Below, in pieces: positions 28,354-61,462 of a DNA stretch of 64,000 nucleotides. Source of the stretch: Bacillota bacterium (GTDB lineage: Bacteria; Bacillota; Clostridia; Christensenellales; Aristaeellaceae). The DNA lies in assembly GCA_023435435.1 (NCBI GenBank), contig JAEYRW010000085.1, positions 1,814 through 65,813 of the forward strand, read 5' to 3'. A program made the position numbers and the translations under genes. Positions within the stretch are counted from its first letter, which is position 1. Each line of letters begins with the position of its first letter. The notes beneath the pieces are model-generated. The model saw nothing but the letters and a program-made list of their open reading frames with translations, did not search any database and was not told the DNA's origin.

Positions 28354-28382
28354 AGGGGCCGGGGGCGAAGGCCCCTCCTTTT
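28354..28382 (+). terminator. possible terminator hairpin
   Basis: AGGGGCC-loop-GGCCCCT followed by CCTTTTC. The T-tract is weak. Confidence 0.35.
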
Positions 28383-40009: not shown

Positions 40010-40024
40010 CATATGGAGGGAAGA

Positions 40025-40801: not shown

Positions 40802-40855
40802 AAGTTTGGCGCGCCACAGGCCGCCAATCCACATAAATGGAAGGAGTTGACCCCC

Positions 40856-41824: not shown

Positions 41825-41825
41825 T

Positions 41826-42845
41826 ATGGCAAAGGCGCAAAAACGCGGCGGCGCCCTGCGGGTGGGCGGCGTATGGCTGATCCTGATCGCACTGCTGGCT
41901 GTCGCCGCGTGCGTCGCGCTCTCCGTGGGCAGCGCGGGGTACTCCGTTCCGGAGATCCTGCGCGCCCTGTTCGGCGGGGAAAAAAGCACGGTCCGGGTGG
42001 TCGTCCTGAATCTCCGCCTTCCTCGGCTGATCCTTTCGGTTCTCATCGGCGCGTCGCTCTCGGCGGCGGGAGCGCTTCTCCAGTCCGTCATGCGCAATCC
42101 CCTTGCCGATCCGGGGATCATCGGCGTCTCGGCGGGGGCGGGCACGGCGGCGACGACCGTGCTTCTCCTCTTTCCGGAGATGACCGGCGCGCTGCCCCTG
42201 TTCGCGTTCGGCGGCGCGGCGCTTGCGTGCGTGCTCATCTACGCCCTCGCGTGGAAGGGCGGCGTGGATCCCGTGCGGATCATACTGTCGGGCGTGGCCA
42301 TCAATTCGGTGCTCGGCGCGTATAATTCACTTTTGCAGCTTCTCAATTCCGACAGTCTCGAGGGTGTGCTGGCGTTCATGAGCGGTTCCCTTTCCGGGCG
42401 GTCCTGGCAGCAGGTGCGCGTGCTGGCGGTGTACGCGGGCATCGGCATCGCCCTGGCCTTTGTGTGTGTCAGGAGCGCGAATACCCTGCAACTGGGGGAT
42501 GAGATGGCCAAGAGCCTGGGCGTAAACGTGAATCTGAGCCGGATTCTGCTCTCCGCCGTGTCGGCGTTTCTCGCGGCGGCGACGGTCTCCGTGGCGGGCA
42601 TGATCGGCTTTGTGGGGCTGGTGGTTCCCCATATCGCGCGCATGCTCGTGGGGTCCGATTACAAGGTAATGCTTCCCACCAGCGTGCTTTTGGGCGCGCT
42701 GGTGCTCATGATCGCGGACACGGCGGGCCGCACCCTCATTCCGGGAATGGAGATCCCCGTCGGCATCGTGATGGCGGCGGCGGGCGGGCCGTTCTTCCTG
42801 TATATGCTCAGAAGGAGTGGTAAAGTCGGTGGAAATCCGGGCTGA
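41826..42845 (+). CDS. FecCD-family permease, locus A
   Basis: MAKAQKRGG... start 1 nt after the binding-protein stop. [17 protein letters not shown] motif; multi-TM. Confidence 0.9.
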   Translation: MAKAQKRGGALRVGGVWLILIALLAVAACVALSVGSAGYSVPEILRALFGGEKSTVRVVVLNLRLPRLILSVLIGASLSAAGALLQSVMRNPLADPGIIGVSAGAGTAATTVLLLFPEMTGALPLFAFGGAALACVLIYALAWKGGVDPVRIILSGVAINSVLGAYNSLLQLLNSDSLEGVLAFMSGSLSGRSWQQVRVLAVYAGIGIALAFVCVRSANTLQLGDEMAKSLGVNVNLSRILLSAVSAFLAAATVSVAGMIGFVGLVVPHIARMLVGSDYKVMLPTSVLLGALVLMIADTAGRTLIPGMEIPVGIVMAAAGGPFFLYMLRRSGKVGGNPG

Positions 42846-43611
42846 AAATCTGGAAATGGCCTACGGCGAATTTGTCGCGGTGGCGCAGATGGACATCAGG
42901 ATTCAAAAGGGGAAGATCACAACGATCATCGGACCCAACGGCTCCGGGAAATCGACGGTCCTAAAGGGCCTCTCGCGCCTTCTTTCGTATCGCGGCGGCG
43001 CGGTGTATCTGGGTGAAAAGGACATGAAGAATTTCGGCGCCAAGGAACTGGCGCGCAGGGTGGCGGTGCTTCCGCAGATTCACGCCGCGCCGCCGGATTT
43101 TCGGGTCAAGGAACTCGTGGGGTACGGGCGCATGCCGCATCAGAGGTGGTATCAGAAAAAGTGCCGCGCCGAGGACGAGGCGGTCATCGACTGGGCCATG
43201 CGCGCGACCGGCGTGTGGCCGCTTCGTGAAAAGTCCATTCGGGAATGCTCCGGCGGCGAATGTCAGCGGGTCTGGATCGCCACGGTTCTCACCCAGCAGC
43301 CGGAATTCCTGTTTCTGGACGAGCCCACGACGTATCTGGACATCGCGCACCAGATGGAGACCATGCGGCTCATCAAAAAGCTCAACCGCGAGGCGGGAAT
43401 GGGTGTGGTGATGGTGCTGCACGATTTGAGCCACGCCCTGGAAGTAAGCGACTGGATTGTGGTCATCAAGGACGGAAAAAAGGCGGGGGAGGGCGTGCCC
43501 GGGGACGTCATCACGCCGGAGATGATGCGCGCGGTCTACGACGTGGACTGCGACATCATTGCCGTGCCCGGTCGGGAAAAGCCCCTCATCGCCTACCGCG
43601 AAATATCATAA
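42829..43611 (+). CDS. FecE-type ABC ATPase, locus A
   Basis: GPNGSGKSTVLK, CSGGECQRVWIATVL, FLFLDEPTT. Start GTG 42829 is preferred (GAAGGAG 11 nt upstream); the track start at 42817 abuts the RBS. Confidence 0.85.
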   Translation: MEIRAENLEMAYGEFVAVAQMDIRIQKGKITTIIGPNGSGKSTVLKGLSRLLSYRGGAVYLGEKDMKNFGAKELARRVAVLPQIHAAPPDFRVKELVGYGRMPHQRWYQKKCRAEDEAVIDWAMRATGVWPLREKSIRECSGGECQRVWIATVLTQQPEFLFLDEPTTYLDIAHQMETMRLIKKLNREAGMGVVMVLHDLSHALEVSDWIVVIKDGKKAGEGVPGDVITPEMMRAVYDVDCDIIAVPGREKPLIAYREIS

Positions 43612-43623
43612 AAGGAGCAAGCC

Positions 43624-44922
43624 ATGGACGGAAAGACGATCGTCGCGCGCCTGAAAAAGCTGCGCGATGTGGAAACCATCCGGGAGGTCAAGACGCTCAC
43701 CGCAGCCATGTTCCCCGGCCCGCACTGTCCCCTCATGGGCGCTGCGATGGCCGTGCGCGGCATACGGGACGGTGTGATTCTGGTCCTGGGGACGGAGGAA
43801 TGTGCGTACTACACCAAGGACATGACGATCCACTCCGGCGAATTCGGCGGACTGGCCGGACGCTGCGTCTCCGTGGTGCTGGACAAAGGGGACGTCACCT
43901 TTGGCTTCCGGGAAAAAGCGGAGGCGGCATTCGGGGAGCTCATGGCCGAGTACGGCCCCAGGGCCGTGTTTCTGACCACCACATGCGTGGTGGAGATCAT
44001 CGGCGAGGACGTGGATGCCCTCGCGGCGCGCATGACCGAAAAGTGGGGGATTCCTGTCATGGCGGTGCATACCGAACACTTCAAGTGCGAAAACCACATT
44101 CCGGGTCTCGCGCGCACAATCTCCGCGTGCTTTGACATAATGGAGTCCCGTCCCCCGGACGGAAGCGTCAATGTGCTCGGGCAGCGCATGGGCGATTTTT
44201 CAAAAACGGAGCTCAGCCGGGTGCTGGGAGAGGCGGGGGCTCGGGTGGGACTGCGGCTCCCCTCCGGCTGTTCCGTGGAGGAAATCAAGGGTGCGGCGGC
44301 CGCCAAAGTCAACGTGGTCGTAAACGAGATCGCCCTGCCCCTCGCGCGGCGGATGGAAGCCGAATTCGGCATCCCGTGGGTGTTCTTCGACCGGTTTGTT
44401 TCGCCGGAGAACATCATGGCCGCATATGAAAGGCTGTTCGCCGCGCTTGCGCTTCCGCTGCCCGACCAATTGAGAGGTCTTTACGCCGCAGCCCGAAAAG
44501 CCCGGGACGGGGCCGCGCGGGCGCTTTCGGGGGTCAAATACATCTACGGCAACACGCCGCTGCGCACCTTTGAATTCAACCGGCTTCTGGTCGAGCTGGG
44601 CATGATTCCCGCGCTCATCCAGACATCCTCCCTCGAGCCGGAGGACAGGGCGGACATTGCCGCGATCCTCGAAAAGAGCGATCCCTACGTCACGAAAACC
44701 GCCAACATCGCGCCTCTCCAGTTTGTTTACGACGAGTTGCAGCCCGACGTCTATTTGGGGCACGAGTTCGCCGCGCGGCTGCGCAAGAAGGGCATCGCCA
44801 TTGCCCATACCGACCGGGCAAGCGGGATGCTTGGCTTTGAGGTTACGGGCTTTGTGCTCGGCGCTCTCGCGGCCGCCGCGCGGGAGGCAAAGGAGTACCG
44901 GAAGGAGGTTTTCGCTTCATGA
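43624..44922 (+). CDS. nitrogenase component-1-type oxidoreductase, NifD/BchN-like subunit, copy A
   Basis: 432 aa, AAGGAG RBS. Three cysteines sit in the canonical cluster-ligand contexts: GPHCPLMGA, LGTEECAYY and TTTCVVEIIGEDVD. Confidence 0.8.
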   Translation: MDGKTIVARLKKLRDVETIREVKTLTAAMFPGPHCPLMGAAMAVRGIRDGVILVLGTEECAYYTKDMTIHSGEFGGLAGRCVSVVLDKGDVTFGFREKAEAAFGELMAEYGPRAVFLTTTCVVEIIGEDVDALAARMTEKWGIPVMAVHTEHFKCENHIPGLARTISACFDIMESRPPDGSVNVLGQRMGDFSKTELSRVLGEAGARVGLRLPSGCSVEEIKGAAAAKVNVVVNEIALPLARRMEAEFGIPWVFFDRFVSPENIMAAYERLFAALALPLPDQLRGLYAAARKARDGAARALSGVKYIYGNTPLRTFEFNRLLVELGMIPALIQTSSLEPEDRADIAAILEKSDPYVTKTANIAPLQFVYDELQPDVYLGHEFAARLRKKGIAIAHTDRASGMLGFEVTGFVLGALAAAAREAKEYRKEVFAS

Positions 44923-46151
44923 GTCTCGTCCGCTATCTGCCCACCCCTTCCGACCGGATGGGTGTCATCTGGAGCCTCCTTTGCGTCGGGGGCGCGGTGG
45001 TCCTGGAATACGGGCCCGCCGGAACCACCCACTACAGCGCGGGCCTGTTCGGCGCCTTGGGCGCGGAGGTGGGCGACAGGCTGTTCACCACGCACATGAC
45101 CGAGGACGACGTTGTGATGGGCGACGTGTCAAAGCTCGAGGCCGCCCTTGTGGAAATCGACCGGGAATACGCGCCAGAGGTGATTTTCGTGGTCGCGTCC
45201 AGCATCTCGGCGGTCATCGGAACCGACCTCAGGGGCGTGTGCGCCTATATGCGGGAAAAGCTCCGCGCCCGGCTGATTCCCATGGATCAGGGCGGCTTCC
45301 GGGGCAACTTCACGCTGGGCCTGCGGGAGAGCTACCGCACGCTGGCCCGGGAACTGGCAAAGCCGGACGCGCCGAAGCTGCCGGGCAGATACAACCTCCT
45401 GGGCGCGTCGGTGGGATCGTATCGCGCGCGGTCGGATGTCTGGGAAATCGAGGATCTGATGCGCCGGGCGTTCGGCATGGAGGCCCATGCGAAACTCTGC
45501 CTGGATACAGATGTAAATGCCATTGAAACCATGGCCGGGGCCGAGGTCAATCTTGCCCTGCGCGCGGAGGCGCTTCCCTGCGCGGAGGAAATGCAAAAAA
45601 GCGGCGGGACGCCTTTCGTGACGGGCGCGCCCTACGGCTATCGCGGCACGCTCGACTGGCTGAACCGGGTTGGCGCGGCCATGGGCAGGGCGGCCGATCC
45701 AGCCCTTGTCCGGGGGATGGAAGCGCAGGCGGCCGAGGCGGCCCGGTACCGGATGTATGGCATGACGCGCCGCGCACACATGCCCGCGGCGGCGATTCTG
45801 GGCGAATACGACCTGGTGGCGGGCCTGTCCACCTTTTTGGATGAGTTGGGCCTGTCAGTGGGGCACAAGATATGTACCCATTCCCTGCGGGATTGGCCGG
45901 AGGCCGGTCCGGAGATCGTCTCCGTAACCGAGGAAAGGGACAGAATCGCCCTTCTGAAGAGGCTGCACCATTTCCTTGTGCTGGCCGACGACGTTTCCGC
46001 GCGCCTTCTTGCCCCGGACAACACATATCTTCGCGTTTCAAACCCGCTGGTGAACGGCGCGCAGATCGCGAACCATATGCCGATCATGGGCCCGCGCGGC
46101 GCGGATTTTATGTTGGAGACCATTGAGACATATTTTCAGTCGCTCTCCTGA
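44919..46151 (+). CDS. nitrogenase component-1-type oxidoreductase, NifK/BchB-like subunit, copy A
   Basis: 410 aa, ATGA overlap with the D-like gene. Alignable by eye to the D-like paralogue (…VVLEYGPAG…, …VVASSISAVIGTDL…), but the ligand cysteines are replaced. Confidence 0.75.
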   Translation: MSLVRYLPTPSDRMGVIWSLLCVGGAVVLEYGPAGTTHYSAGLFGALGAEVGDRLFTTHMTEDDVVMGDVSKLEAALVEIDREYAPEVIFVVASSISAVIGTDLRGVCAYMREKLRARLIPMDQGGFRGNFTLGLRESYRTLARELAKPDAPKLPGRYNLLGASVGSYRARSDVWEIEDLMRRAFGMEAHAKLCLDTDVNAIETMAGAEVNLALRAEALPCAEEMQKSGGTPFVTGAPYGYRGTLDWLNRVGAAMGRAADPALVRGMEAQAAEAARYRMYGMTRRAHMPAAAILGEYDLVAGLSTFLDELGLSVGHKICTHSLRDWPEAGPEIVSVTEERDRIALLKRLHHFLVLADDVSARLLAPDNTYLRVSNPLVNGAQIANHMPIMGPRGADFMLETIETYFQSLS

Positions 46152-46208: not shown

Positions 46209-46990
46209 TCAGAACTCATTCAGGCGTCCTTCCCGGGACAAAGACCACAAAATCATTCCGGCGCTGAGCAGTTGGGCGACCGCGGTGGCCGCCGCCGCGC
46301 CGGGCACGCCCCACCCGAGCGCGAGGTCGAGCGCGATGTTCGCGGCGCCGGAAATGAGGAGCACATAGAAAGCGTCTTGGTGTTTCCCGGCGCGCGCAGG
46401 ATGCCCGCCCCGATGTTGTAGGTCATTAGGGCAACACCGCCCAAATCCTACGCGGGCGGGCGGCTGCATTTCCGCCATCTCGCGCCCGCAGAATTCTTGA
46501 CGTAGCGTTGCTACGCCTTCGCCTCGGCTCCTTGCCTTGGGCGAAAATCCATCGCGGGGCTTTCTCCCGTCATTTCTGCGCCTTGCTCTGAGACCGACAG
46601 CGCGCCGAAGGTAATGCGCACGTAGGCGGGCGTCATGGGCGCGATGTCGTCCGGGACGTTCAGCATGCCTGCGAGGGCGGGCGAGAGCAAAATGCCCAGG
46701 ACGGAAAACAGGAGCCCCGCCGCGAGGGCAAACGTGATCGCCGTGTGCGCCGCCCGCGAAAGCATTTCCCGTTTCTTTGCGCCGTAATGCCGGGCAATCA
46801 AAACACCCGCACCCGCCGAAAAACCCACCCCAAAATTGACCGGCAGCTTTACCGCGACCGCGAAAAACGCATCGTCGCTCCGTCCACCGCCTCCAAGCGC
46901 GTCCGGGAATTGGAAGGGGAGGTGGGCCGGGAACTGGTGACGCGAAAGCACGCCGGTGTCGCCCTTACGCGCCGGCAGAACCATGCTGGA
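46209..46990 (-). pseudogene. decayed MATE-family efflux transporter
   Basis: MATE-like peptide pieces occur in three different minus-strand frames: GVGFSAGAGVLIARHYGAKK...PAYVRITFGAL; ALMTYNIGAGILRAPGNTKT; FYVLLISGAANIALDLALGWGVPGAAAATAVAQ. They are interrupted by unrelated sequence at about 46445-46590, and the C-terminal half is absent. Confidence 0.6.
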
Positions 46991-47320
46991 ATACGAGGAG
47001 CGCATCTCGTCAACTTTCTCTACGAGGCGACGCATGGCTGACTGTTTCCCAAAGGCCAGCAATTTCAGCTGGAATTGGACGTTGCGGCGGACGCGCTTTC
47101 CTATCGCAAAACCGGAAGGTGATACGCGCTTGTGGCTCGGGGCCTCGTCCCGGACGATTTGCAAAAGGGGCTTTTGCGGGAGGTACCAGTGTTGAAGGGG
47201 ACGATCCCACCCGTCGGGTACTTTCGATTGTATCGAAAAAATGGCGCGCGGGAAGGCGCGATACGGGAGTGGCTGTTGCCCGGGGACGAAGCGGAAGGGG
47301 CGACCCCATGAAAATTTAAA

Positions 47321-47334
47321 TTAGGATACCCTAA
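47321..47334. promoter_or_regulatory. TTAG-N6-CTAA operator, copy 8
   Basis: TTAGGATACCCTAA in the -35 region of an extended -10 promoter (TGTATAAT, 47352-47359) upstream of the locus B AraC gene. Confidence 0.55.
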
Positions 47335-47418
47335 TAAGTTAACCGCCCTCGTGTATAATGGATGCGGCGCAAAACCCGGAAGGCCGTTCCAATAGACATG
47401 CACAGGAGGATCGTGTCC

Positions 47419-48261
47419 ATGATCGCAGATATTGATCGCGTCGCGGATTATTTTGCTCAAAACAATATGACCTTTCTGGATGCCCATGTCATCAGCGTCG
47501 CGCCTGGAAGCGCGCGCCGGAATACGGCGACCGCGCCGGCGGGGCAGGGAATCGTCATTCCTCTTTCCGGCAGCGCCGTATTCACCATGGACGGAACGCC
47601 CTATTTTCTGTCCCCCGGGATGGTCCTGCACGCCCGGCCCGGCGTGTGCCTGAACAAGGAGGTCGTCGGGAAAGAGGCGTGGCGCTATGCGCTGGTGCAC
47701 TATCGCGCCGCCGGTGAGGCGGATGTGCCGGACCTCGCCCATTTCGGCATGCCCGTGGAAGACTCGCCGCGCATTGCCGCGCTTTCCGGCAAACTCAGTG
47801 CGGCGGCGGACGCCGCGGACAGCATGGCGGCGCTGCGGGCAAAATCCCTTTTTCACAACCTGATTGAGGAGCTTCTCCTCTCCGCGATCAGGCGGCGGGA
47901 CGGCGGCGGCGTCATCGGCGAGGCGCTTTCCTACCTTCATGAGAATTACGCGGGTCAGTTTACCGCCGCCGAACTGGCGGCGCGGTTCGGATTGAGCGCC
48001 AAGCGCTTTGCGGCGGTCTTCCAACGGCATACGGGCATGACCCCCGCCTGCTATCTCACCGGACTGCGCATCCGGCAATCAAAGGAACTGCTCAGAACCA
48101 GCGACTGTCCCGTATCCCGCGTGGCGGAGTACGTGGGTTACCAGGATCCCTATTATTACAGCAGACTGTTCAAAAAGATAAGCGGCGTGTCTCCCACGGA
48201 ATTTCGGGCGGCGTCCGCCGAAAATGTCCGCGCAAAATCAGAAATCAACGCACGGGATTAA
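47419..48261 (+). CDS. AraC-family regulator (cupin-like N-domain plus HTH), locus B
   Basis: AGGAGG 8 nt before ATG 47419. C-terminus YLTGLRIRQSKELLRTSDCPVSRVAEYVGYQDPYYYSRLFKKISGVSPTEFR. Confidence 0.85.
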   Translation: MIADIDRVADYFAQNNMTFLDAHVISVAPGSARRNTATAPAGQGIVIPLSGSAVFTMDGTPYFLSPGMVLHARPGVCLNKEVVGKEAWRYALVHYRAAGEADVPDLAHFGMPVEDSPRIAALSGKLSAAADAADSMAALRAKSLFHNLIEELLLSAIRRRDGGGVIGEALSYLHENYAGQFTAAELAARFGLSAKRFAAVFQRHTGMTPACYLTGLRIRQSKELLRTSDCPVSRVAEYVGYQDPYYYSRLFKKISGVSPTEFRAASAENVRAKSEINARD

Positions 48262-48274
48262 AAGGGAGGAGAAA

Positions 48275-49066
48275 ATGGCCATGCACAGCATCGCCACCGC
48301 GAACCTTGCCATCGCCTACGAGGATCACCTCGTGGTAAACGGCCTCGATATGCAAATTCCGCGGGGGGAAATCACCTCGATCATCGGGCCCAACGGCTGC
48401 GGGAAATCCACGGTCCTCAAGGCGGTGGGGCGCATCCTCAAGCCCAGGGGCGGCAGCGTATCCCTCAACGGCAACGACATCCGGACGCTTTCCACCGGCG
48501 AAATCGCCCGCAAAATGGCGATTCTGCCCCAATCCCCGCTGGCGCCCGCGGGACTCACGGTGGGCGAGCTTGTGGGGTACGGCCGCTTCCCGCATCAGAA
48601 GGGGTTTGGAAAACTGAAGCCGGAGGACAGGGAAATCGTCCGCTGGGCATTGGAGGTGACGCGGCTTTCGGAACTGGAGACCTCGTTGGTGGACGCCCTC
48701 TCCGGCGGCCAGCGGCAGCGCGTGTGGATCGCCATGGCGCTGGCGCAGCAGACCGACCTGATTCTGCTGGACGAACCCACGACGTACCTCGACCTCTCTT
48801 ATCAGCTGGAGGTGCTCGAACTGCTCTACCGCCTCAACCGGGAGCAAAATTGCTCCATCGTCATGGTGCTCCACGATCTCAACCTGGCGGCGCGCTTTTC
48901 CGATTACATGATCGCCATCCGGGACGGGGAAATCGTCGGCTGCGGCGCGCCCTCCGAGATCATGACGCCCCGGGTGCTCGAAAAGGTCTTTCAAATCGAC
49001 GCGACCATCGCCACGGAGCCCCGCACGGGCCGCCCCGTCTGCCTGACCTACAACCTTCTGCGCTGA
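48275..49066 (+). CDS. FecE-type ABC ATPase, locus B
   Basis: GGGAGGAG RBS. GPNGCGKSTVLK, LSGGQRQRVWIAMALA, LILLDEPTT. Confidence 0.9.
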   Translation: MAMHSIATANLAIAYEDHLVVNGLDMQIPRGEITSIIGPNGCGKSTVLKAVGRILKPRGGSVSLNGNDIRTLSTGEIARKMAILPQSPLAPAGLTVGELVGYGRFPHQKGFGKLKPEDREIVRWALEVTRLSELETSLVDALSGGQRQRVWIAMALAQQTDLILLDEPTTYLDLSYQLEVLELLYRLNREQNCSIVMVLHDLNLAARFSDYMIAIRDGEIVGCGAPSEIMTPRVLEKVFQIDATIATEPRTGRPVCLTYNLLR

Positions 49067-49142
49067 CGGGAGGGGAAGTCCATCTCCACGCGGAAAAAAA
49101 TCCATTCCATTCCGCCGGGCGATGTGGTACCATGTCCTTGTG

Positions 49143-49156
49143 TTAGGAATGCCTAT
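49143..49156. promoter_or_regulatory. degenerate TTAG-N6-CTAA operator, copy 9
   Basis: TTAGGAATGCCTAT has the same left arm and core as copy 1, with one mismatch in the right arm. Lies just upstream of the RBS of the locus B binding protein. Confidence 0.4.
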
Positions 49157-49175
49157 CAATTTAGGAGGAAAGCAA

Positions 49176-50150
49176 ATGAAAAGAGTCCTTATTTTTGTGC
49201 TGACGCTTTTGACGGCGGCGATGGGAAGCGTCGGCTTTGCCGAGGAGACGCCCAAGACGACCGGCGACATCGACGACAAGACGGTGAGCGTCAACTACAT
49301 AAGCGAGGTGGAATACCCGTACACCTATACGGACGCGGCGGGCAGGGAAATTACCATCGAGCATCAGATCACCGCCATCGCGGTGGACTATCTCCCCCTG
49401 TGGGAGAGCATGACGCTTCTGGGCGTCAAGCCCGTGGCGGCCTCCGGAAGCGAGAACTACATCGCCACCTGGGACGCCTTTGACGGATACGACTTCAGCA
49501 CCGTAACGGACATCGGGTCGAGCGAAATCAACCTCGAGCTTCTGGCGGCGCTGGAGCCCGATCTCATTCTCGCCCAGGTGTGGGACGTAAACGACATGGA
49601 CATCGCCAATTACGAAAAGATCGCCACCGTCGCAGTCTTCAGCATGGATACCAAGATGGACTGGCGGCTGAGTCTGCGGGAGGTGGGCAAGCTCCTCGGG
49701 CTCTCCCAGCGCGCGGAGGAGGTCATCGCCCAGGTTGAGGAACGGCTCGCGGCGTCGAGGGAACTCATAAAGGAAGAATATCAGGATCAGACGGTGATGC
49801 AGATTTCCATCATGGGCGAGGACAAGTATTACTGCGCGTGGCGCGAGGATCTCTACGGCGAAACCGGCCTGGGCCTGAAAACGCCGGAGGGATACACCAC
49901 CTCCACCAACTACGAGCAGATTTCCATGGAAGCCATCGCCCAGATGAATCCGGACGTGATTTTCATCAACCTCTTCGATGGCGACGAGGCCATCTACGAG
50001 GCCATGACCGCAAACAGCGTCTGGCAGTCGCTGACCGCCGTGAAGAACGGGCGCGTGTATCTGCTGGACGGCACCGGTCACGCCAACAGCGCCCTGTCCA
50101 CGCTCCATACGGTGGACTTCATCGTCGAAAGCCTGACGCAGGCCGAGTAA
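49176..50150 (+). CDS. iron-chelate/B12-type ABC substrate-binding protein, locus B
   Basis: AGGAGG RBS. Signal peptide MKRVLIFVLTLLTAAMGSVGFA, then a Peripla_BP_2-like body (ITAIAVDYLPLWESMTLLGVKPV). Confidence 0.85.
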   Translation: MKRVLIFVLTLLTAAMGSVGFAEETPKTTGDIDDKTVSVNYISEVEYPYTYTDAAGREITIEHQITAIAVDYLPLWESMTLLGVKPVAASGSENYIATWDAFDGYDFSTVTDIGSSEINLELLAALEPDLILAQVWDVNDMDIANYEKIATVAVFSMDTKMDWRLSLREVGKLLGLSQRAEEVIAQVEERLAASRELIKEEYQDQTVMQISIMGEDKYYCAWREDLYGETGLGLKTPEGYTTSTNYEQISMEAIAQMNPDVIFINLFDGDEAIYEAMTANSVWQSLTAVKNGRVYLLDGTGHANSALSTLHTVDFIVESLTQAE

Positions 50151-50220
50151 TCAGGGATGGAAACGGGCGGTGGGCCTGCAAATAGGCCTGTCGCCCCTTT
50201 TCCTTGCCGGGGAGTTGGAA

Positions 50221-51216
50221 ATGTCAAAATCACGAAAAACGGCCGCCTTCGGATTGGCGGCGGCGGCGCTGCTCGTCATATTCCTCTTTGCGTCGATCAA
50301 TACCGGGGCCGCCCAAATCGGCCTTCGCGGGGTCTGGGACGCGCTTTTCGCCTTCGACCCCGAAAACACCATGCACCTGCTCGTGCGGGATATGCGGCTC
50401 GTCCGGGCGCTTTCGGGGGCGGCGGTGGGCGCTTCCCTGGCGGTGGCGGGCGCCATGATGCAGGGTATGACCCGCAACCCCATGGCGGATTCCGGCCTCA
50501 TGGGGCTGAGCGCGGGGGCGGGCTTCGCCATTTCCCTGTGCGTTTCGGTGCTCGGGTTCACGCGCTACAATCTGGTCCTCCTGTCCAGCTTCGCGGGCGC
50601 GCTTCTGGGCGCGGCAGGGGTTTACGCGATCAGCGCCCTCGTCCCCGGCAGCGAAACGCGCGTGAAGCTGGTGCTGTCCGGCGCCATGCTGTCCACGTTT
50701 TTGTCCGCTCTTTCCCAGGCCATCGCCATTCAAAGCGGCAAATCCCAGTCGCTGATGTTCTGGACGCTGGGGAATCTGTCCGGGATCAGCTGGGGTCAGT
50801 TTTTGGCCGCTTTGCCCTTTCTGGCGGCGGGCGTTCTCCTTTCGCTGCTTTTGTCCCCGCGGGTGACGATTCTGAGCCTGACGGACGAGGTCGCGGCCGG
50901 GCTCGGGGTGCGCGTGGGCGCGGTCAAGGCCCTGGGGACGCTGGCGGTGGTGCTCATGGCGGGCACATCGTTCGTGCTGGCGGGAAACATCACGTTCGTG
51001 GGGCTCCTGACCGCGCACTTCTGCCGCTTTCTCGCGGGCCCGGACTACCGGCGCGTGATTCCCCTGAGCGCACTGTTCGGCGGCGTACTGGTCGTTCTGG
51101 CGGATACGCTCGCCAAGGGAATCGCGCCGCCGGTGGAATACCCGGTGGGGGCGCTCATCTCGCTGATCGGCGTGCCCGTGTTCCTCTATTACGCGCGAAG
51201 GAAGGCGGGAAAATGA
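50221..51216 (+). CDS. FecCD-family permease 1, locus B
   Basis: MSKSRKTAAFG start; RNPMADSGLMGLSAGAG motif; multi-TM. Confidence 0.85.
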   Translation: MSKSRKTAAFGLAAAALLVIFLFASINTGAAQIGLRGVWDALFAFDPENTMHLLVRDMRLVRALSGAAVGASLAVAGAMMQGMTRNPMADSGLMGLSAGAGFAISLCVSVLGFTRYNLVLLSSFAGALLGAAGVYAISALVPGSETRVKLVLSGAMLSTFLSALSQAIAIQSGKSQSLMFWTLGNLSGISWGQFLAALPFLAAGVLLSLLLSPRVTILSLTDEVAAGLGVRVGAVKALGTLAVVLMAGTSFVLAGNITFVGLLTAHFCRFLAGPDYRRVIPLSALFGGVLVVLADTLAKGIAPPVEYPVGALISLIGVPVFLYYARRKAGK

Positions 51217-52217
51217 AAAAGACGCGGATTGCCCTGCCGCTGCTGCTCCTCGTTTTGCTTCTCCTGCTGATCCTTTCCGTCCGGACGGGGTATACGTCCC
51301 TTTCGTTTCGGGACATCCTGCGGATTCTCCTGGGCGGCGGGACAGACGGCGAAAATCTGGTGGTCTTTTCCTTCCGCATGCCGCGGATTTTCCTCGGAAT
51401 GCTCAGCGGCATGGGCTTCGCCCTGTCGGGCTGCGTGCTGCAGGGATTGACGCGCAACCCGCTGGCCGATCCCGGTCTTCTGGGCATCAACGCGGGGGCC
51501 GGGCTCGTGGTGGTGACGTTCCTCTCGCTGGCGGGGACGCTCTCCCTGGGGAGCGTGCTCTCCCTGCCCCTCTTCTCGCTGCTGGGCGCGGCGCTCTCCG
51601 GACTGCTGATTTACGCGCTCTCGGTTCGGAAAAATGGGGGACTTGATTCCATGAAGATGATCTTAAACGGCATCGCGATCCAGCTGGGCATGACCGCCGC
51701 CATGACGCTTCTGGCGCTGGGCCTGGATTCCGATCAGTACGAATTCGTCGCGCGGTTTCAGGCGGGGAGCTTCTGGAACGCCGACTGGCCCATGGTTCTG
51801 AGCCTTCTTCCGTGGATCGCCGCCGGATTTTTGCTGCTCATGACCAAGACGCGGGTTCTCAATCTCCTCGAAGCCGGGGACGAGATTGCGGTAGGCCTGG
51901 GCGTCCGGGTGCGCGGAGAAAAGAGGACGCTCATGATCGCGGCGCTGGCGCTGGCGGCGGCTTGCGTGTCCTCCAGCGGAAGCATGAGCTTTGTCGGGCT
52001 CGTCGCGCCCCACCTGGCGCGCAGGCTCGTCGGTTCGCGCCATCAATACCTGGTTCCGGCGAGCCTTTTGACGGGCGGGATCGTCGTGGTCGCGGCGGAC
52101 GCCGTTGCCCGCACGGTCGTCCAGCCGGAGACGCTGCCCACGGGGCTCGTCACGTCGCTCATCGGCGCGCCCTACTTTCTGACGATGCTCGTTGCCCGGC
52201 GCAAAGGCGTGCGGTGA
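51213..52217 (+). CDS. FecCD-family permease 2, locus B
   Basis: ATGA overlap with permease 1. [18 protein letters not shown] start; [17 protein letters not shown] motif. Confidence 0.85.
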
Positions 52218-52252
52218 CGCGCGCGACATCAAACACGACGGAGGGATACGCC

Positions 52253-52996
52253 ATGCAGAAAATCGCGATTTATGGGAAGGGTGGCATCGGGAAATCCACC
52301 ACCGTCTCCAATTTGTCCGTCACCTTTTCCCGCATGGGATACAGGGTCATGCAGATCGGCTGCGACCCCAAGGCGGACTCCACAAGAAACCTGACCGGCG
52401 GCACGCGGATTCAAACGGTGCTGGATGCCCTGCGCCGGGGGGACGACGTGTCCCTTGACGAAATCGTCGTCCGGGGTGACCGGGGCGTCCTGTGCGTCGA
52501 ATCCGGCGGCCCCAAGCCGGGCATCGGCTGCGCGGGGCGGGGCATCATCACGGCCTTCGAGAAGCTCGACGAGCTCGACGCCTATCGCGTCTTCCGCCCC
52601 GATATCGTGCTGGGCGACGTGGTGTGCGGCGGTTTTTCCATGCCCATCCGAAACGGATACGCGGACAAGGTCTTCATCGTAACCTCGGGGGAAATGATGT
52701 CTCTGTACGCCGCGACCAACATCGCCCACGCGGTGGGAAACCTGAGCGGAAGCCGTGCGGCCGCGCTGGGCGGACTGATCTTCAACGCGAAAAACATCGA
52801 GGACGAGGACCGATTGGTGGAAACGGCCGCCGGGGAGATGGGAACGGCCGTGATCCACAAAATCCCCCGGGACGGCGCGACCCAGCGCGCGGAAGCGCAT
52901 GGGAAGACCGTCGCCGAGGCTTTTCCCGAAAGCGCCATGGCGGGGGAATACCGGGTGCTGGCGGAGAAACTGACGGAGGGCTGGGATGGGATATAA
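52253..52996 (+). CDS. NifH/BchL-family ATPase, copy B (in-frame 4-codon deletion in the Walker B/switch II region)
   Basis: [34 protein letters not shown] and VVCGGFSMP are all present. However, [10 protein letters not shown] lacks the IYDV residues of copy A ([14 protein letters not shown]). Confidence 0.8.
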
Positions 52997-54142
52997 GAGG
53001 CTGTCCGATATCGCGGGAAACGCGGGCGTGCGGTTATCGGAAACGCCCGTCGCATGCGGCGTACATTGCCCGATGCACACGCTATTGTCGGTGGTCCGGC
53101 GACTGAAGGGCGTCTCGACCTTGGTCGTCGGCATGCCCGAGTGCTGCCGGTACAGCCGCTTCGTCATCGACAATCTGCATTTTCCGGATCTTCATTACGT
53201 CTATATGCTGGACGGAAACGAAGTCGTGTTGGCTGCGGGGACGGGGTTGCGCGTGCGCTTTCGGAAATGGCCGGGGCGGGGGCCGCGCACATCCTGGTGG
53301 TCAAGACCTGCGTTCCCGCGCTCATTGGCGAGGAACTCGAGGGCGGCTCGGACGCGGTGGGCCGGGAAACGGGCGCCGCGATCCGCGTCATCGACGCGGC
53401 GCACTTCAAGCGCAACGGGTATCTTTCCGGGTACGCGCTGGCCTACGAGGCGCTGGCCTTTTTCCTGCCCAAGTTGGCGGCGGAAAATCAGGTCAATCTG
53501 CTGGGCGGCGCGGACGGCGCGGAATTTGCACGACTGAAGGATTTGATCGGCGCGCGCTTCCGGCGCGCGGCCTTTCCCGCGCAGGAGCCGGACGATTGGC
53601 CCGCGCTGGCGCGGGGGCGGTTGAATCTTGTGTTTTCCGCGCTGTTTTTGAAGATGGCGCGGGCGATGGAGGAACGGCTGGGAATCGCCTACATCGATCT
53701 TACCCGGGGAACGACGCCCGCCCGGGTCGCGGCGCTTTACCGCGCGATTTCCGGGGCGCTGGAGATGCCCGTCGAGCTCGATCCGGGAGCCGCTCCCGCG
53801 CGGTGTGCACGGGAGCCTTTGCGGTACACAAGTAGCATCTCCCATCCGGATATTTTGACGATGGTCGCCATCCTCGACGCGTGCGGCGCGGCGGCGGACG
53901 CGATTCATCTGGAGGAAGCGGACGACGTTTCCGGGCGCGAAGGACTGTCGTGCGATCCGCAGGTTTTCTATGAGGCGAAATCGGCGAACCGCGGCGCGAC
54001 GTCGCTCATCTTTGAAAACGGGGCCAGTATCCCCGGCGGGGCAATCGAGGCGGCGATGAAAAAAATCGGCTATGAGCGGATTGAGGCGCTTTGCGCGCTC
54101 GTCCGTTCAGCGACGGAAGGAGGCGCGGCATGCCGCTTATAA
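52986..54142 (+). pseudogene. NifD/BchN-like subunit, copy B, disrupted by a 1-nt frameshift near 53229-53230
   Basis: Frame 1 gives ...VHCPMHTLL...GMPECCRYS...YMLDGNEVV. The homologous continuation (GCGDGVARALSEMAGAGAAHILVVKTCVPALIGEELEG...) is in the -1 frame and runs to 54142. Confidence 0.7.
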
Positions 54143-55314
54143 AAAATGTTCCGGAGATGTCCGGCAGGATGGGCAGACTCATGGCCCTCGCGACCGTCGA
54201 AGGCGCGGTGCTGCTGGAATACGGCTCCATGGGCCACATGGTTTACGCGGAAAAATGGAAGGGGCAGCTGGGCGCCGCGCCCACGGCGGAGCTGTATACC
54301 ACCCACATCGGGGAAAAGGAGATCGTGCTGGGGCTGACGGATCGGCTGGAAGAGGCCGTCGGGAATCTGATCCGCACGAAAAAGCCTCCCGCCATATTCG
54401 TCATCCCCTCCTCGATTCTTGAGATGATCGGCACGGATCTTGGCCCGGTCTGCGACGAGCTCTCCGAAAAGTCTGCGACGAAAGTCCTTTTCAGCCGAAA
54501 GGGCGGATTCCGGGCGCGCGGGGGCGACGGGATCGAGGAGGCGCTTTTCCAACTTGCCCGGGAAATCGCCGATGCGCCGGACGGAACGGAGGAATCGTTC
54601 AATCTTCTGGGCTGCTGTGCGGATCACACGGGCTTCCGAAACGACGCGCGGGAGATCGCCCGCATCATGAAGGGCGCGTTTTCCCTGGACATGCACTGCG
54701 CCCTCACGGGCATTTCCTCCATGGAACGCATCCGGACGATGAACCGCGCCCGGCTGAACGTCGTTCATCGGTGGGAGGCGCTGAAGGCGGCCCAATATCT
54801 CGAGGGGGAATACGGGATTCCCTATGTATACGTGCCGGCCTACGGCCTTGCGGGCACGCTCGCGTTCTTAGAGGAGGCGGGGCGCGCGCTGGGCAGGGAG
54901 GCAAAGTCCGATTTTGTGGAAACCGAAAAGGCCGAGGTTCTGCGCCAGATTGAGCTGTGCAGGGCGCGCTTTTCGCACGATGAAAACAAACCCACCGTTA
55001 ACATCGGCGGCCCGAGCGACCGCGTGCGCGGCATCGCGTCCTTTTTGGTTGAGGAGCTCGGCTTTGCGCGCGGCCTTGTCTGGGCCAGCGACCGAAGGGA
55101 GGCAGGGCTTGCGTGGATGACCGACGACGAGGCCTTCGATCTGATTCGGCCGGGATTCACCCTCGCCGCGCCGGAAATCACCGAACGGGCGGGAATGGGC
55201 CGAATGCATGCATTGACCTGGAGCGCCGCGACGCAGGATATTGATCCGGATGTCCCGACGTTTGCTGGATTTGGGGGAACGGTTGGGCTGTGTTTTCTTG
55301 TCTCCGGGCAATAG
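54130..55314 (+). CDS. NifK/BchB-like subunit, copy B
   Basis: GGAAGGAGG RBS. MPLIKNVPEMSGRMGRLMALATVEGAVLLEYGSMG... aligns with copy A (MGVIWSLLCVGGAVVLEYGPAG...). IPSSILEMIGTDL matches VASSISAVIGTDL. Confidence 0.75.
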   Translation: MPLIKNVPEMSGRMGRLMALATVEGAVLLEYGSMGHMVYAEKWKGQLGAAPTAELYTTHIGEKEIVLGLTDRLEEAVGNLIRTKKPPAIFVIPSSILEMIGTDLGPVCDELSEKSATKVLFSRKGGFRARGGDGIEEALFQLAREIADAPDGTEESFNLLGCCADHTGFRNDAREIARIMKGAFSLDMHCALTGISSMERIRTMNRARLNVVHRWEALKAAQYLEGEYGIPYVYVPAYGLAGTLAFLEEAGRALGREAKSDFVETEKAEVLRQIELCRARFSHDENKPTVNIGGPSDRVRGIASFLVEELGFARGLVWASDRREAGLAWMTDDEAFDLIRPGFTLAAPEITERAGMGRMHALTWSAATQDIDPDVPTFAGFGGTVGLCFLVSGQ

Positions 55315-55356
55315 ACCGATTGCCATAGTGCCGCTGCCTGGAAGGTGCGAAAAAGA

Positions 55357-55393
55357 GGCGAGGCGCCGCAAACGCAGACCTCGCCGTTTTTTT
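55357..55393 (+). terminator. intrinsic terminator after locus B
   Basis: GGCGAGG-loop-CCTCGCC followed by GTTTTTTTAT. Confidence 0.75.
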
Positions 55394-57690: not shown

Positions 57691-57720
57691 ATCATACGAC
57701 TGATTTGAGTGCGCGGTCAA
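57691..57720 (-). promoter_or_regulatory. promoter for the SulP gene
   Basis: Minus strand TTGACC, 18 nt spacer, TATGAT. Confidence 0.5.
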
Positions 57721-58042
57721 CGGAGAAAATGAAAAATCCCCACTGAGATTAGGCTCCATTTGCACGGAGTTTTTACGACGAGCACACAGTGGGATCGGCT
57801 CATCAAAAATGGCAGTTCCGCGGAAATCCCATCGGCATGAGCGGTAGAAGGAGCCAAGCAACGATCTCCCTGATTCATACGCCAGAGACGGTGCAACACT
57901 CTGATTTCCCACGCCGATTATCCTGACATTTCGCTTAAAGGGACTTTGTAAAAACGCCATAAATTATGTTAAAACGCTATTTCAATGTCAAAACATCCTC
58001 CATCGTGTTTGTGACGAAACACACAACAGGAGGATTGCTTTT

Positions 58043-58408
58043 ATGCTCGTCAATTACAAGCACATCGGTCGGAGAGTTAAGGAAATCCGCAACGCGAAAA
58101 GGTTGACTCAGGCCGAGCTTGCCGAGCAGATCGACATGTCCGCGCCGTACATAAGCCTGATCGAAACCGCCGCGAAAAAGGCAAGCCTTTCCAGCTTGAT
58201 CCTGATCGCCAGCGCGCTCGACGTTACGGTGGATGCATTGCTCAGAGGGACGCAAACCAACGACGCGGCGGAATACTGCCGCGATTTCGTTTCCCTGATC
58301 AATGACTGTGATCGCTACGAAAGACGCATCATTTTCGAAGTGGCCTTCGCCACCAAGAAAAGTTTACGCGATAGCAGGTGTCTTTCCGCCTTTTCCGAAG
58401 AAATGTAA
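58043..58408 (+). CDS. XRE-family HTH regulator
   Basis: IGRRVKEIRNAKRLTQAELAEQIDMSAPYISLIE, a classic Cro/C1 HTH. AGGAGG RBS. Confidence 0.85.
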   Translation: MLVNYKHIGRRVKEIRNAKRLTQAELAEQIDMSAPYISLIETAAKKASLSSLILIASALDVTVDALLRGTQTNDAAEYCRDFVSLINDCDRYERRIIFEVAFATKKSLRDSRCLSAFSEEM

Positions 58409-58521
58409 ACGGCATTGTCCGGATTATTCACCGGAGGTAAAGTTGTTTTCCTCCGGTGAATAGACTTTGTATGAAATCCACATATAATAGCATTATTCGA
58501 CCTTGTTCGGGGGGATTTGTG

Positions 58522-60399
58522 ATGCAGGAGACCAAAGCGGTGAAAAGAGACACCGAAAACCGCAAGGAAAAAATACGCGCAAAATATCAAAGTGCGATTC
58601 CGGATGACATTGATATCATTCCGGCTGCACCGCAGGAAAACTTTTTTGAGGATGAGAAGGAGAAGCGCGTCGCCTTTTATGTCCGCGTGTCCACCGACGA
58701 CCCACGGCAAACGTCATCGTTTGAACTGCAAAAAGGTCATTATACGGAAATGCTGAACCGGCACAAAAACTGGAAGCTGGTTCATATTTTCGCCGACGAG
58801 GGTATATCGGGAACTTCATTGAAGCACCGCGACGCCTTTATAAGAATGATTTCCGACTGCAAAGCCGGTCAGATCGACCTGATTGTTACAAAGAGTGTTT
58901 CCCGATTTGCCCGCAACGTCGTTGACTGTATCGGATATGTGCGGCAACTGGCGGCCATGCAGCCGCCCGTAGGTATTTTCTTTGAGATGGAAAGTATCTA
59001 TACATTGAATGACAGCAGCGAGATGAGCCTTTCATTTATGTCCACATTGGCACAGGAAGAATCGCATATCAAAAGCAGAGTCGCGAATGATTCGATTGAA
59101 AAAAGGTTCCGTCGCGGCATCTTCCTCACCCCGCCGCTGCTCGGTTACGACCAGGACGAGGACGGCAACCTTGTCATGAACCCGGAGGAAGCGAAAACCG
59201 TGCGGCTGATTTTCTTTCTATATTTGTACGGCTGCACCTGCCGGCAAATAGCGGAAATGCTTACGTCCTTAAAGAGGATGACGAAAAGAGGGAACACTGC
59301 GTGGGCGCCCGGTTCAATCCTGCAGATTCTGCAAAACGAACGGCATTGCGGGGACATACTCGCCCGCAAGACATGGACACCGAGTTACCTTGACCACCTG
59401 TCGCGTAAAAACCGGAATAACCACAACCAATATACAAGAAAAGACAACCACGAAGCCATCGTTTCGCGGGATGATTTCATTGCTGTTCAGCGGCTGATCA
59501 GCAATGCCAAATATGGAAACAAAGGCATATTGCCAGAGCTGAAGGTGATCGCGGACGGCGCGCTGAAAGGTTTTGTTTCCATCAATCCGCGCTGGGCGGC
59601 TTTCAGCGCCGACGATTACCGCGCAGCCTCCGAAAGCGTATATGGCGGGGCAGATAAGCCGGAGTCAAAGCCTTTGGAGGTCAAGGCGCAGTCCGGCGAT
59701 TTTGATTTACGCGGGTTTGAGGTCACCCGCTCTCAATTTTTTGATACCGCCCGTAAATTGTGCGTCACGCTGTCAACCGAGAACATCTGGTTCAGCAAGG
59801 AATGCATCCGCAAATTTGCAAAGGAACTTTATGTGGAAATGTTGGTTCATCCCCATGAACACCTTCTTGCCGTACGGCCCTGCGCCAAGGAATGCAGAAA
59901 CGCCGTCAGGTGGGCAATGATCAACGAAGCAAATTACAATCCGCGTGACATCAGCGGCGCGGCATATTTGAATACCTTATTTGGAATGTTTGGTTGGGAC
60001 ACCGAATTGAGGTATCGTGTCCGGGGTGTGCGCAGGCAAAAAGACAATGAGTCCGTTGTCATTTTCGATATGAGGGATACCGAAATTCTGATTTCCAACA
60101 TGGCGGCTGACGGCTGCTTTCGTGAAAATACCAGTCCCGTGAGCGCGAACCCCCAAAATACCGTCGTCGCTTTCCCTCCGTCCTGGGTGGGCAACTTTGG
60201 CAGCAATTATTACCGCCACGCACAGGCGCGGGAATTGGCGGCAATCGACAAGGATGGTATGTGGAAAGTTGCGGTGGAGGGGCAGCCCTACAGGGATGCG
60301 CTGAGCATCCATGTAACCGATCAGGAAACCATTTCCAACGACATAAAGCAAATGATTTCCGATATGGAAAGGAAAGGTGCGGACAATGGAAACGGATGA
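58522..60399 (+). CDS. large serine recombinase
   Basis: RVAFYVRVSTDDP (catalytic Ser), ADEGISGTS and LIVTKSVSRFARN resolvase motifs, a recombinase domain, and a long C-terminal extension. Confidence 0.9.
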   Translation: MQETKAVKRDTENRKEKIRAKYQSAIPDDIDIIPAAPQENFFEDEKEKRVAFYVRVSTDDPRQTSSFELQKGHYTEMLNRHKNWKLVHIFADEGISGTSLKHRDAFIRMISDCKAGQIDLIVTKSVSRFARNVVDCIGYVRQLAAMQPPVGIFFEMESIYTLNDSSEMSLSFMSTLAQEESHIKSRVANDSIEKRFRRGIFLTPPLLGYDQDEDGNLVMNPEEAKTVRLIFFLYLYGCTCRQIAEMLTSLKRMTKRGNTAWAPGSILQILQNERHCGDILARKTWTPSYLDHLSRKNRNNHNQYTRKDNHEAIVSRDDFIAVQRLISNAKYGNKGILPELKVIADGALKGFVSINPRWAAFSADDYRAASESVYGGADKPESKPLEVKAQSGDFDLRGFEVTRSQFFDTARKLCVTLSTENIWFSKECIRKFAKELYVEMLVHPHEHLLAVRPCAKECRNAVRWAMINEANYNPRDISGAAYLNTLFGMFGWDTELRYRVRGVRRQKDNESVVIFDMRDTEILISNMAADGCFRENTSPVSANPQNTVVAFPPSWVGNFGSNYYRHAQARELAAIDKDGMWKVAVEGQPYRDALSIHVTDQETISNDIKQMISDMERKGADNGNG

Positions 60400-61096: not shown

Positions 61097-61460
61097 TTCC
61101 GGCCGCCCGGCGATCTTGATCGACCTGAAAAAAGGTAGGATACGGGTATCCAAAAGGACAATTCACGCCATTGGCGACCCGAAGTACATACTGCTGCTTG
61201 TCAACCCGGAAGACCGCACAATCGTGATCCTTCGCAGCGATCGGGATGATCAGAGGGCATTTCGTCTGCCGCAGGCGCGGTTTGACGACAGGCAACGCTT
61301 CGAACTCCACAGCAGAGCGTTGGTGCGGAACCTACGCGGTATGTGCGATGATTGGGTTGACGGGTATTCGTACCGAATCTATGGTGAGGTCGTGAAAAAC
61401 GAAGGGATTGCGCAGTTTTGCATCGCGAAGGGGATTCCCAGCTGCGGAATGAAGGAGTAA
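61086..61460 (+). CDS. hypothetical protein; third, more diverged copy of the same domain
   Basis: 124 aa: PKYILLLVNPEDRTIVILRS ... YSYRIYGEV follows the same pattern. Confidence 0.6.
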   Translation: MSHDSGRPAILIDLKKGRIRVSKRTIHAIGDPKYILLLVNPEDRTIVILRSDRDDQRAFRLPQARFDDRQRFELHSRALVRNLRGMCDDWVDGYSYRIYGEVVKNEGIAQFCIAKGIPSCGMKE

Positions 61461-61462
61461 AA

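Follow-up and report, generated by a model that had tools for sequence, protein, structure and literature searches.

Gene content and organization of locus B

The 64,000-nt window analysed here (contig JAEYRW010000085.1 of the Bacillota bacterium assembly GCA_023435435.1) contains an operon, locus B, that encodes an AraC-family regulator, an iron-chelate-type ATP-binding cassette (ABC) importer and a nitrogenase-like reductase with H, D and K components. A sequence-only reading of positions 47321-55314 had held that the reductase module is damaged and the transporter genes are intact. We traced the features of the locus from 47320 to 55392, through the terminator, all on the plus strand. The reductase of locus B is knocked out by two independent lesions, one in D and one in H, while the open reading frames (ORFs) of the importer and the regulator are intact and full length, in agreement with that claim. 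Gene content and order were checked by Pfam and by gene calls on an identical public scaffold. Both agreed with the gene list and order already proposed: operator, TATAAT box, AraC gene, ABC ATPase, operator-like site, binding protein, two FecCD permeases, H, D, K and terminator.

A palindromic operator, ATTAGGATACCCTAAT, with the core TTAG-N6-CTAA is located at 47320-47335, where it overlaps and takes up the -35 position of the AraC promoter. A TATAAT -10 box follows at 47354-47359 (plus strand). This box had been described as an extended -10; the TATAAT is perfect, but TG abuts it directly (GTG-TATAAT), so there is no canonical TGnTATAAT. The AraC-family regulator (280 aa, 47419-48261) carries a cupin-like AraC_binding domain and an HTH_18 domain. 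Its true start is at 47419, 3' of AGGAGG, and the ORF start at 47362 falls within the promoter. The FecE/FhuC-type ABC ATPase (48275-49066) is intact, with Walker A, signature and Walker B motifs all kept, and stands out of the order usual in its family of operons. The spacer of 110 nt between the ATPase and the binding protein gene contains a second operator-like site with one mismatch, GTTAGGAATGCCTATC (49142-49157), directly 5' of the Shine-Dalgarno sequence of the binding protein gene.

The secreted substrate-binding protein (Peripla_BP_2, FhuD/FeuA-like, 49176-50150) has a signal peptide without a lipobox cysteine and is followed by FecCD permease 1 (50170-51216, alternative start ATG at 50221) and FecCD permease 2 (51213-52217), which share an ATGA overlap at 51213-51216. 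The NifH-like H gene (247 aa, 52253-52996) carries a 12-nt in-frame deletion at 52605/52606. The NifD/E-like D pseudogene spans 52986-54142, in frame 0 to 53230 and in frame 2 from 53231 to the stop at 54142, and the NifK/N-like K gene (394 aa, 54130-55314) has an intact ORF in Pfam and gene calls. H and D overlap by 11 nt and D and K by 13 nt. The operon ends in an intrinsic terminator at 55353-55392, a hairpin with a GGCGAGG...CCTCGCC stem followed by a T7 run. Rfam gave no RNA family in locus B, its sole match in the window being a cobalamin riboswitch. No flanking repeats or insertion sequence elements were found around the locus; only the blocks of paralogy between locus B and the neighbouring locus A appeared.

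Two lesions in the reductase genes

The frameshift reported for the D-like gene was confirmed as the loss of 1 nt at 53230/53231, inside the codon of an invariant phenylalanine (Phe82). Frame 0 ends in ...LDGNEVV and frame 2 continues as GCGDGVARAL...; inserting one base after 53230 restores the conserved NEVVFGC, of which V80, F82 and G83 were invariant in an alignment with nine homologues. With the frame repaired, the 385-aa D protein can be aligned along 99% of its length to its nearest homologue (P0002, 380 aa, ~41-42% identity) and has the cluster cysteines Cys28, Cys53 and Cys109. The lesion splits the gene between the second and third of these. Uncorrected, frame 0 runs to a stop at 53537, and gene callers report for D only a C-terminal ORF of 291 aa that is without two of the three cluster cysteines. 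Aside from the missing base, D contains no stop codon and no other frame break, and the conserved motifs are encoded.

The loss of four codons from the H-like gene was likewise borne out, as a clean 12-nt gap against 47 orthologues and the H of locus A. In the DNA alignment the ends of the gap share CGTG (relatives read GATAT[CGTGATCTACGA]CGTGCTG), and the 12 nt were lost between two CGTG repeats at 52605/52606, which reads as a signature of slippage or microhomology. The deletion takes out xYDV, a stretch that is kept in 47/47 orthologous H proteins and in the H of locus A, all of which share PD[IV][IV][ILM] just before it; the loss is unique to locus B among 48 homologues. The lost residues include the Asp of Walker B/switch II, equivalent to Asp125 of Azotobacter NifH. 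In NifH/MinD-type ATPases this residue lies in the Walker B/switch II strand and is needed for nucleotide-dependent signalling. H retains the P-loop GKGGIGKS, the switch I motif DPKADS and both [4Fe-4S] cysteines (CAGRG, VVCGGF), and matches Fer4_NifH with E=1e-84. From these features H is a nitrogenase-like reductase component by descent and is probably inactive.

Both lesions were judged from assemblies of one sample only. The window is found as the ENA metagenome scaffold LEMO22-1_SAMN17215445_METAG-scaffold_157 and as an independently assembled Logan contig from SRR13358444, and the two assemblies are identical base for base over 9.2 kb. Taken together, the data indicate that both the D and the H lesion most probably exist in the genome and arose recently. 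The downstream D frame is still open, conserved motifs remain, and the H/D and D/K translational-coupling overlaps are kept, arguing that inactivation happened recently.

The sequence-only reading had offered assembly error as an alternative, under which sequencing or assembly would have introduced the D frameshift, the H gap or both, and locus B would be a second system in full working order. This is improbable. Sequence of locus B comes from a single sample, its H, D and K protein clusters are singletons, and the base missing from D belongs to a short run of T, a possible indel site, that reads TT in place of the expected TTY; these points would all fit an artefact. However, two independent assemblies agree, an in-frame loss of 12 nt between CGTG repeats resembles replication slippage and is atypical of read or assembly error, and the other ORFs surveyed across the window gave full-length domain matches with no frame breaks. 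The two lesions are also only 625 nt apart in one functional module, which is unlikely for independent artefacts.

A working split system is far less probable still. In this case a programmed ribosomal frameshift would yield D, or D would be translated as two polypeptides, and H would be functional in its shortened form, consistent with the open, conserved downstream D frame and the retained overlaps with H and K. Against this, there is no slippery heptamer at GUC GUG UUG GCU, where frame repair would require a -1 re-read, 0 of ~60 homologues are split or shortened at the lesion sites, and the Asp missing from H is the Asp125 equivalent. Programmed frameshifting at the D lesion was rejected on the lack of a slippery site and of any split homologue.

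Substitutions across locus B

Decay beyond the two lesions was assessed from positions with at least 90% conservation in the orthologues, as the share of these that differ in locus B. This share was 8.5% for H, 9% for D and 15.4% (10/65) for K, the last being the highest of 55. Permease 2 reached 12.8%, the highest of any locus, the binding protein and AraC were also high at 17%, and the ATPase was changed at 1.1% of conserved positions. Conserved Trp and Pro residues, three of each, are missing from the K of locus B, as is the Arg of the C-terminal fRGA motif, an Arg that the K of locus A still has. D and K evolve fast throughout the B-type family, with median orthologue identities of 33-39% for D and 38-48% for K, and the values for locus B (31% and 36%) are only slightly lower. 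Measured by median identity per protein family and by conserved positions, locus B is somewhat more diverged everywhere but in the ATPase. Isolated lineages (Coriobacteriales, Treponema, Deferribacterales) gave changed-position values similar to those of locus B, and relaxed selection in B is therefore not separable from lineage distance.

These values bear on a further explanation, that the whole of locus B is decaying and its transporter ORFs are merely not yet interrupted. The record values for permease 2 and K, the high values for the binding protein and AraC and a truncated MatE gene directly upstream all speak for it. We nevertheless consider it unlikely, as the ATPase is well conserved, lineage distance can account for the substitution values and the GC content at third codon positions (GC3) of the transporter genes is host-like (0.83-0.85). 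GC3 of all locus B genes is host-like (0.72-0.85), slightly lower in D and K than in the transporter genes, and foreign origin or decay of the locus as judged from GC3 was rejected on these values.

The MatE gene is a MATE efflux fragment of 217 aa (half a MatE domain) on the minus strand at 46511-47164, in the interval that separates locus A from the locus B promoter. This fragment is probably a truncated pseudogene left at a rearrangement or insertion junction, suggesting local gene turnover upstream of locus B.

Relation to known nitrogenase-like systems and importers

D and K both match PF00148 (Oxidored_nitro), the tandem pair of a nitrogenase-like catalytic component, with three conserved cysteines in D and none in K. 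Among solved structures the D-family profile scored best against NifE and NifD (E ~1e-25 to 1e-22). An AlphaFold model of the closest intact D homologue (mean predicted local distance difference test score, pLDDT, 87.6) aligned about equally well with NifD/K, NifE/N, MarD and BchN/B (template modelling (TM) scores of 0.45-0.57), and the D homologue is thus predicted to have the nitrogenase component-1 fold.

None of H, D and K of locus B reached an NCBIfam cut-off for nifH, CfbC, BchL/X, nifD/E/K/N, BchN/B/Y/Z or CfbD. A true nitrogenase or NifEN was rejected on scores of 305 against a cut-off of 394 for nifH and 30-84 against 505 for nifE, together with the absence of a NifB-like gene from the locus. 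For CfbCD of F430 biosynthesis, CfbC scored 307 against 402, D had no TIGR03282 match and a K subunit is present. Dark-operative protochlorophyllide oxidoreductase (DPOR) and chlorophyllide oxidoreductase (COR) were rejected at 179 against 345 for BchL, 166 against 331 for BchX, 66 against 490 for BchB and 44 against 529 for BchZ. Nitrogen fixation-like (NFL) Group VI of Elusimicrobia has a radical SAM-rich neighbourhood (10.1101/765248). It was set apart from locus B by this described neighbourhood, since the neighbours here are the truncated MatE gene, locus A and SulP, none of them radical SAM. In a 2026 review of NFL systems, Groups IV-D and IV-E have no known function and Group VI is linked to radical SAM genes.

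Several of these systems do share features with locus B. CfbC is the best NCBIfam match of H (307 bits), and CfbCD uses ATP to reduce a metal tetrapyrrole, with a [4Fe-4S] cluster as electron acceptor; unlike locus B, CfbD is a homodimer with no K partner, in a different biosynthetic context and with no linked importer. In DPOR and COR (BchLNB and BchXYZ, Group V) the fold is related (TM ~0.5), and three cysteines on one subunit with none on the other resemble asymmetric NB-cluster ligation. However, no photosynthesis genes occur here and NifE and NifD outscore BchN. The methylthio-alkane reductase MarBHDK and the isethionate reductase IsrBHDK (Groups IV-C and IV-F) are nitrogenase-like HDK enzymes that gain a nutrient from imported or salvaged small molecules, and their genes adjoin those of ABC transporters (PMC13474568, PMC11423573). 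They have a NifB-like radical SAM partner, a sulfur context and sulfonate or taurine transporters, whereas locus B has no NifB homologue and an importer of the iron-chelate type.

The importer is an iron-chelate type II system (FecCD/BtuCD-like) with a Peripla_BP_2 binding protein, FecCD permeases and an ABC_tran ATPase. By sequence, the nearest solved relatives of the binding protein are FhuD, FeuA, YfiY, FepB and SirA. The AraC of locus B resembles Btr, and the Btr-FeuABC system of Bacillus has an AraC regulator, a FecCD pair, a FecE-type ATPase and a FhuD/FeuA-like binding protein in common with locus B.

The nearest described relatives are the clusters of NifH, NifEN-like and ABC transporter genes of C. 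botulinum and Alkaliphilus oremlandii, which have the same gene families and the same cysteine pattern as locus B. Dos Santos et al. 2012 (PMC3464626) report such clusters in these two organisms with function unassigned, note for the C. botulinum cluster three P-cluster-position cysteines in the E/D-like subunit and none in the N/K-like subunit, and suggest that where nitrogenase-like genes lie beside those of ABC transporters, the transport of a metal and the assembly of a cofactor might be coupled. In what was read of the paper no mention was found of the AraC regulator (by term search), the operator or the flavodoxin link described below. Loci of C. botulinum, C. sporogenes and C. tetanomorphum were retrieved by us as orthologues with the same operon order. 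Locus B differs from the 2012 clusters in having the ATPase between AraC and the binding protein, a Lachnospiraceae-type binding protein, and mutated H and D.

The B-type operon family and its distribution

B-type loci were collected by a D-family profile scan of one genome per GTDB species, and the window proteins were then mapped onto the loci. The scan returned 56 loci with a D homologue, mainly in Lachnospiraceae, Clostridium (botulinum, sporogenes, tetanomorphum), Tissierellia and Paenibacillus, with others in Treponema, Deferribacterales, Seleniivibrio and Coriobacteriales. At E<=1e-30, an exhaustive profile search put the B-type D family at 145 representatives (50%-identity clusters). 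The order AraC, binding protein, permease 1, permease 2, ATPase, H, D, K recurs in nearly all B-type loci, and orthologous AraC genes lead nearly all of them. In locus B all eight families lie on one strand in the same order, save for the ATPase between AraC and the binding protein. Locus B is best explained as a member of a conserved operon family that moves horizontally and combines an AraC regulator, a type II importer with a heterodimeric permease and a three-subunit H-D-K reductase.

The genes of locus B are not all closest to the same relatives. The ATPase is 70-77% identical to Clostridium/Tissierella-type loci and 57-60% to the rest, and the binding protein is 53-66% identical to Lachnospiraceae-type loci and 24-32% to the Clostridium/Tissierella subset. 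AraC, like the ATPase, is closest to Clostridium/Tissierella/Treponema-type loci. These identities suggest that locus B is a mosaic in which the binding protein cassette was exchanged, which fits the displaced ATPase gene.

Some family members (L034, L038, L040, L044 and L046, from Paenibacillus and relatives, and L059 and L060) have a D-K pair without an adjacent H. The Paenibacillus loci read AraC, binding protein, permease 1, permease 2, D, K, followed by a second importer, and in L059 and L060 the D-K pair adjoins FeoB-associated, ZIP and methyltransferase genes. In these loci H may act in trans, or the loci may also be degenerate.

Relation of locus B to locus A

Locus A (40013-46151) lies ~1.2 kb from locus B on the same strand and reads H, binding protein, one permease, ATPase, D, K. 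The same arrangement is conserved across hundreds of further contigs. More than 500 homologues of the locus A D were found, of which the closest are 57-67% identical, and some of the clusters contain thousands of sequences. One A-type locus, Bacteroidota-like and from the human gut, has TonB-dependent receptors and a ChaN-type heme-binding protein encoded on its flanks, and another, in a 62%-GC relative, is accompanied by a divergent AraC gene. Locus A represents a separate operon type, more conserved than the B type, that has a single permease and another kind of binding protein.

Locus B had been read as a rearranged copy of locus A. This did not hold, as B matches the operon of 50+ genomes with only the ATPase displaced, and the order of A is itself conserved. 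The paralogues had also been described as alignable but heavily substituted. They are diverged, but far more than this implied: protein identity between A and B is 62-64% for H, 42-44% for the ATPase, 33-41% for the permeases, 30-37% for K and 22-26% for D, and the two binding proteins gave no BLAST hit to each other. The binding protein of A is IsdE/BtuF-like and that of B FhuD/FeuA-like. The suggestion of two chelate specificities is in part upheld, in that different and dissimilar binding proteins fit two substrates.

D-family scores place the two loci apart. Median scores of the D of locus B were 162 bits with B-type and 93 bits with A-type family members; for the D of locus A the medians were 559 against the A-type and 111 against the B-type family. 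Similarly, the K of locus B has a median identity of 36% to B-type orthologues and 30% to the K of locus A. Judged by these comparisons, A and B are anciently diverged, separately conserved operon types that happen to be neighbours.

Origin of locus B by duplication of locus A in this lineage, followed by rearrangement and decay, is highly improbable. The loci are close together on one strand, encode the same protein families, share an operator motif and have H genes that are 71-78% identical at the DNA level, all of which a duplication would explain. However, H is 62-68% identical to every homologue, and the likeness of the two H proteins is therefore uninformative on ancestry. The low identities of D and K, the lack of detectable similarity between the binding proteins and the clean separation of A and B by D-family scores argue against duplication, as does the fit of each locus to its own operon type, widely conserved in other phyla.

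Both binding proteins have signal peptides of the signal-peptidase-I type (…AFA|E) without a lipobox cysteine (49176-49260 in locus B, 40856-40940 in locus A). These signal peptides suggest a periplasm and hence a diderm host, although the homologues are mostly from Bacillota.

The palindromic operator and its sites

The operator upstream of AraC at 47321, as first read, is a real element: the window contains 7 exact TTAGN6CTAA sites against 0.08 expected. Besides the site at 47321, exact operators are located at 15628 upstream of a second AraC gene, at 16756 upstream of an ABC exporter-type gene pair, at 20794 and 20971 between a small winged helix-turn-helix (wHTH) gene and a DUF3793-flavodoxin operon, and at 39921 and 39996 upstream of the H of locus A. 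Sites with one mismatch precede the binding protein gene of locus B (49143) and a third Fec-type importer (24307). The motif, (G)TTAG-N6-CTAA(C), is often part of a longer palindrome, CCATnnAGTTAG...CTAAC.

The exact motif was present upstream of the AraC or binding protein gene in 29/50 orthologous loci. Among the 56 orthologous loci, 33 of the 52 exact motifs lie no more than 250 nt upstream of an AraC or binding protein gene, against 1.5 expected (P ~5e-38), and they are usually 10-15 nt downstream of a TATAAT-like box. Motifs in L003-L058 are upstream of AraC or binding protein genes, and others were located at 1333 in L059 and ~6287 in L065. Contigs of the closest D relatives of locus B have the motif as well, and the closest A-type relative has a version with one mismatch. 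Upstream of H in L062, a Bacteroidota-like A-type locus, the motif forms a perfect palindrome of 34 nt (4321-4354), with a further site at 10593. The operator thus recurs across phyla next to nitrogenase-like importer operons.

Shared operator sites suggest that both loci, the two AraC genes, the ABC-exporter pair and the DUF3793-flavodoxin operon probably form one regulon. As the operator-binding protein, the cluster AraC would be the most economical candidate. Half-sites that resemble TTAGG/CCTAA make a DtxR-like regulator another candidate. The small wHTH protein (20421-20750) was rejected as the operator binder, having no homologue in any related locus.

Other features of the window

An anaerobic cobalamin biosynthesis operon (CbiJ, CbiA, CobO, CbiD, methylases, CbiG and others) occupies 62-15401 on the minus strand, with its cobalamin riboswitch at 15202-15401 (104 bits). 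Further products of this operon are a FecCD/ATPase importer, a protein of 886 aa with a Peripla_BP_2 domain at its C-terminal end, and a CbiK extended N-terminally by ~110 aa. The third iron-chelate-type ABC importer (binding protein, FecCD, ATPase; 24302-29399) has its one-mismatch operator just downstream of a TATAGT box and is followed by a URO-D-family gene on the opposite strand. Over ~57700-64000 the GC content falls from ~62% to ~50%, and the genes there specify an XRE-type HTH protein, a large serine recombinase (Resolvase and Recombinase domains), DUF6551 and several family-less ORFs. The region is probably an integrated mobile element or prophage.

Proposed function and implications

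In the most economical model, which remains tentative, the intact system would import a metal chelate and then carry out an ATP-dependent, flavodoxin-fed reduction at low potential by H and D/K. The binding protein and permeases would import the chelate, siderophore-like for B and heme- or corrinoid-like for A. H, reduced by flavodoxin, would use ATP to pass low-potential electrons to a [4Fe-4S] cluster held by the three D cysteines at the D/K interface. D/K would then reduce the metal or the ligand ring of the imported chelate, making the metal or a modified cofactor usable in anoxia. In this organism the reductase step of B would be lost, and the B importer and regulator may persist alone or be at an earlier stage of decay.

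Gene neighbourhoods are consistent with parts of this scheme. The DUF3793-flavodoxin operon of the window (21066-22035) carries two operators. In one B-type locus (L010, 2833-3903) DUF3793 and flavodoxin genes directly precede the B-type AraC gene and share its strand, and the operator stands ~230 nt 5' of DUF3793. Flavodoxin may be the electron donor to the NifH-like protein. A-type loci adjoin TonB receptors and a ChaN-like heme-binding protein, and the closest B-type D-K pairs adjoin FeoB-associated and ZIP genes. The ferric-siderophore reductases FhuF and ViuB/YqjH would share with D/K the role of metal release after import. Known siderophore reductases are small flavin or [2Fe-2S] proteins, and no ATP-dependent, nitrogenase-like enzyme is known in that role. 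A literature search found no paper on a nitrogenase-like siderophore reductase and no characterisation of the B-type cluster.

Several points weigh against our reading of locus B and its function. The substrate and the reaction are wholly inferred, with no paper found that characterises the cluster. All of the sequence comes from one sample. No closer relative of locus B was found (the nearest D is 42% identical, the nearest CbiD 76%). The excess substitutions in H, K and permease 2 are matched by other outliers, and relaxed selection is neither shown nor restricted to the reductase. One motif-bearing locus, the Bacteroidota-like L062, has no AraC within 8 kb.

A second, decaying copy would by itself be ordinary genome turnover, and the value of locus B lies in what it points to. 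Clusters of HDK genes with a siderophore-type importer were noticed in 2012 with no function assigned, and the A-type D has hundreds of metagenome homologues, at least one of them from the human gut. The window places both operon types under one shared operator with a flavodoxin operon, which offers a testable regulon and an electron-donor hypothesis. It is possible, if somewhat doubtful, that the two operon types, the flavodoxin operon, the exporter pair and the operator-sharing AraC genes make up an unrecognised metal-acquisition pathway, widespread among anaerobes from Bacillota to Bacteroidota. If so, a nitrogenase-like, ATP-driven, flavodoxin-fed reductase would process an imported chelate, such as a ferric siderophore or metalloporphyrin, at potentials beyond those of ordinary reductases, and locus B would be a natural knockout of the reductase half. 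The loss of only the reductase in locus B suggests that the importer can be kept without it, which would place limits on models with an obligatory coupling of transport to reduction.

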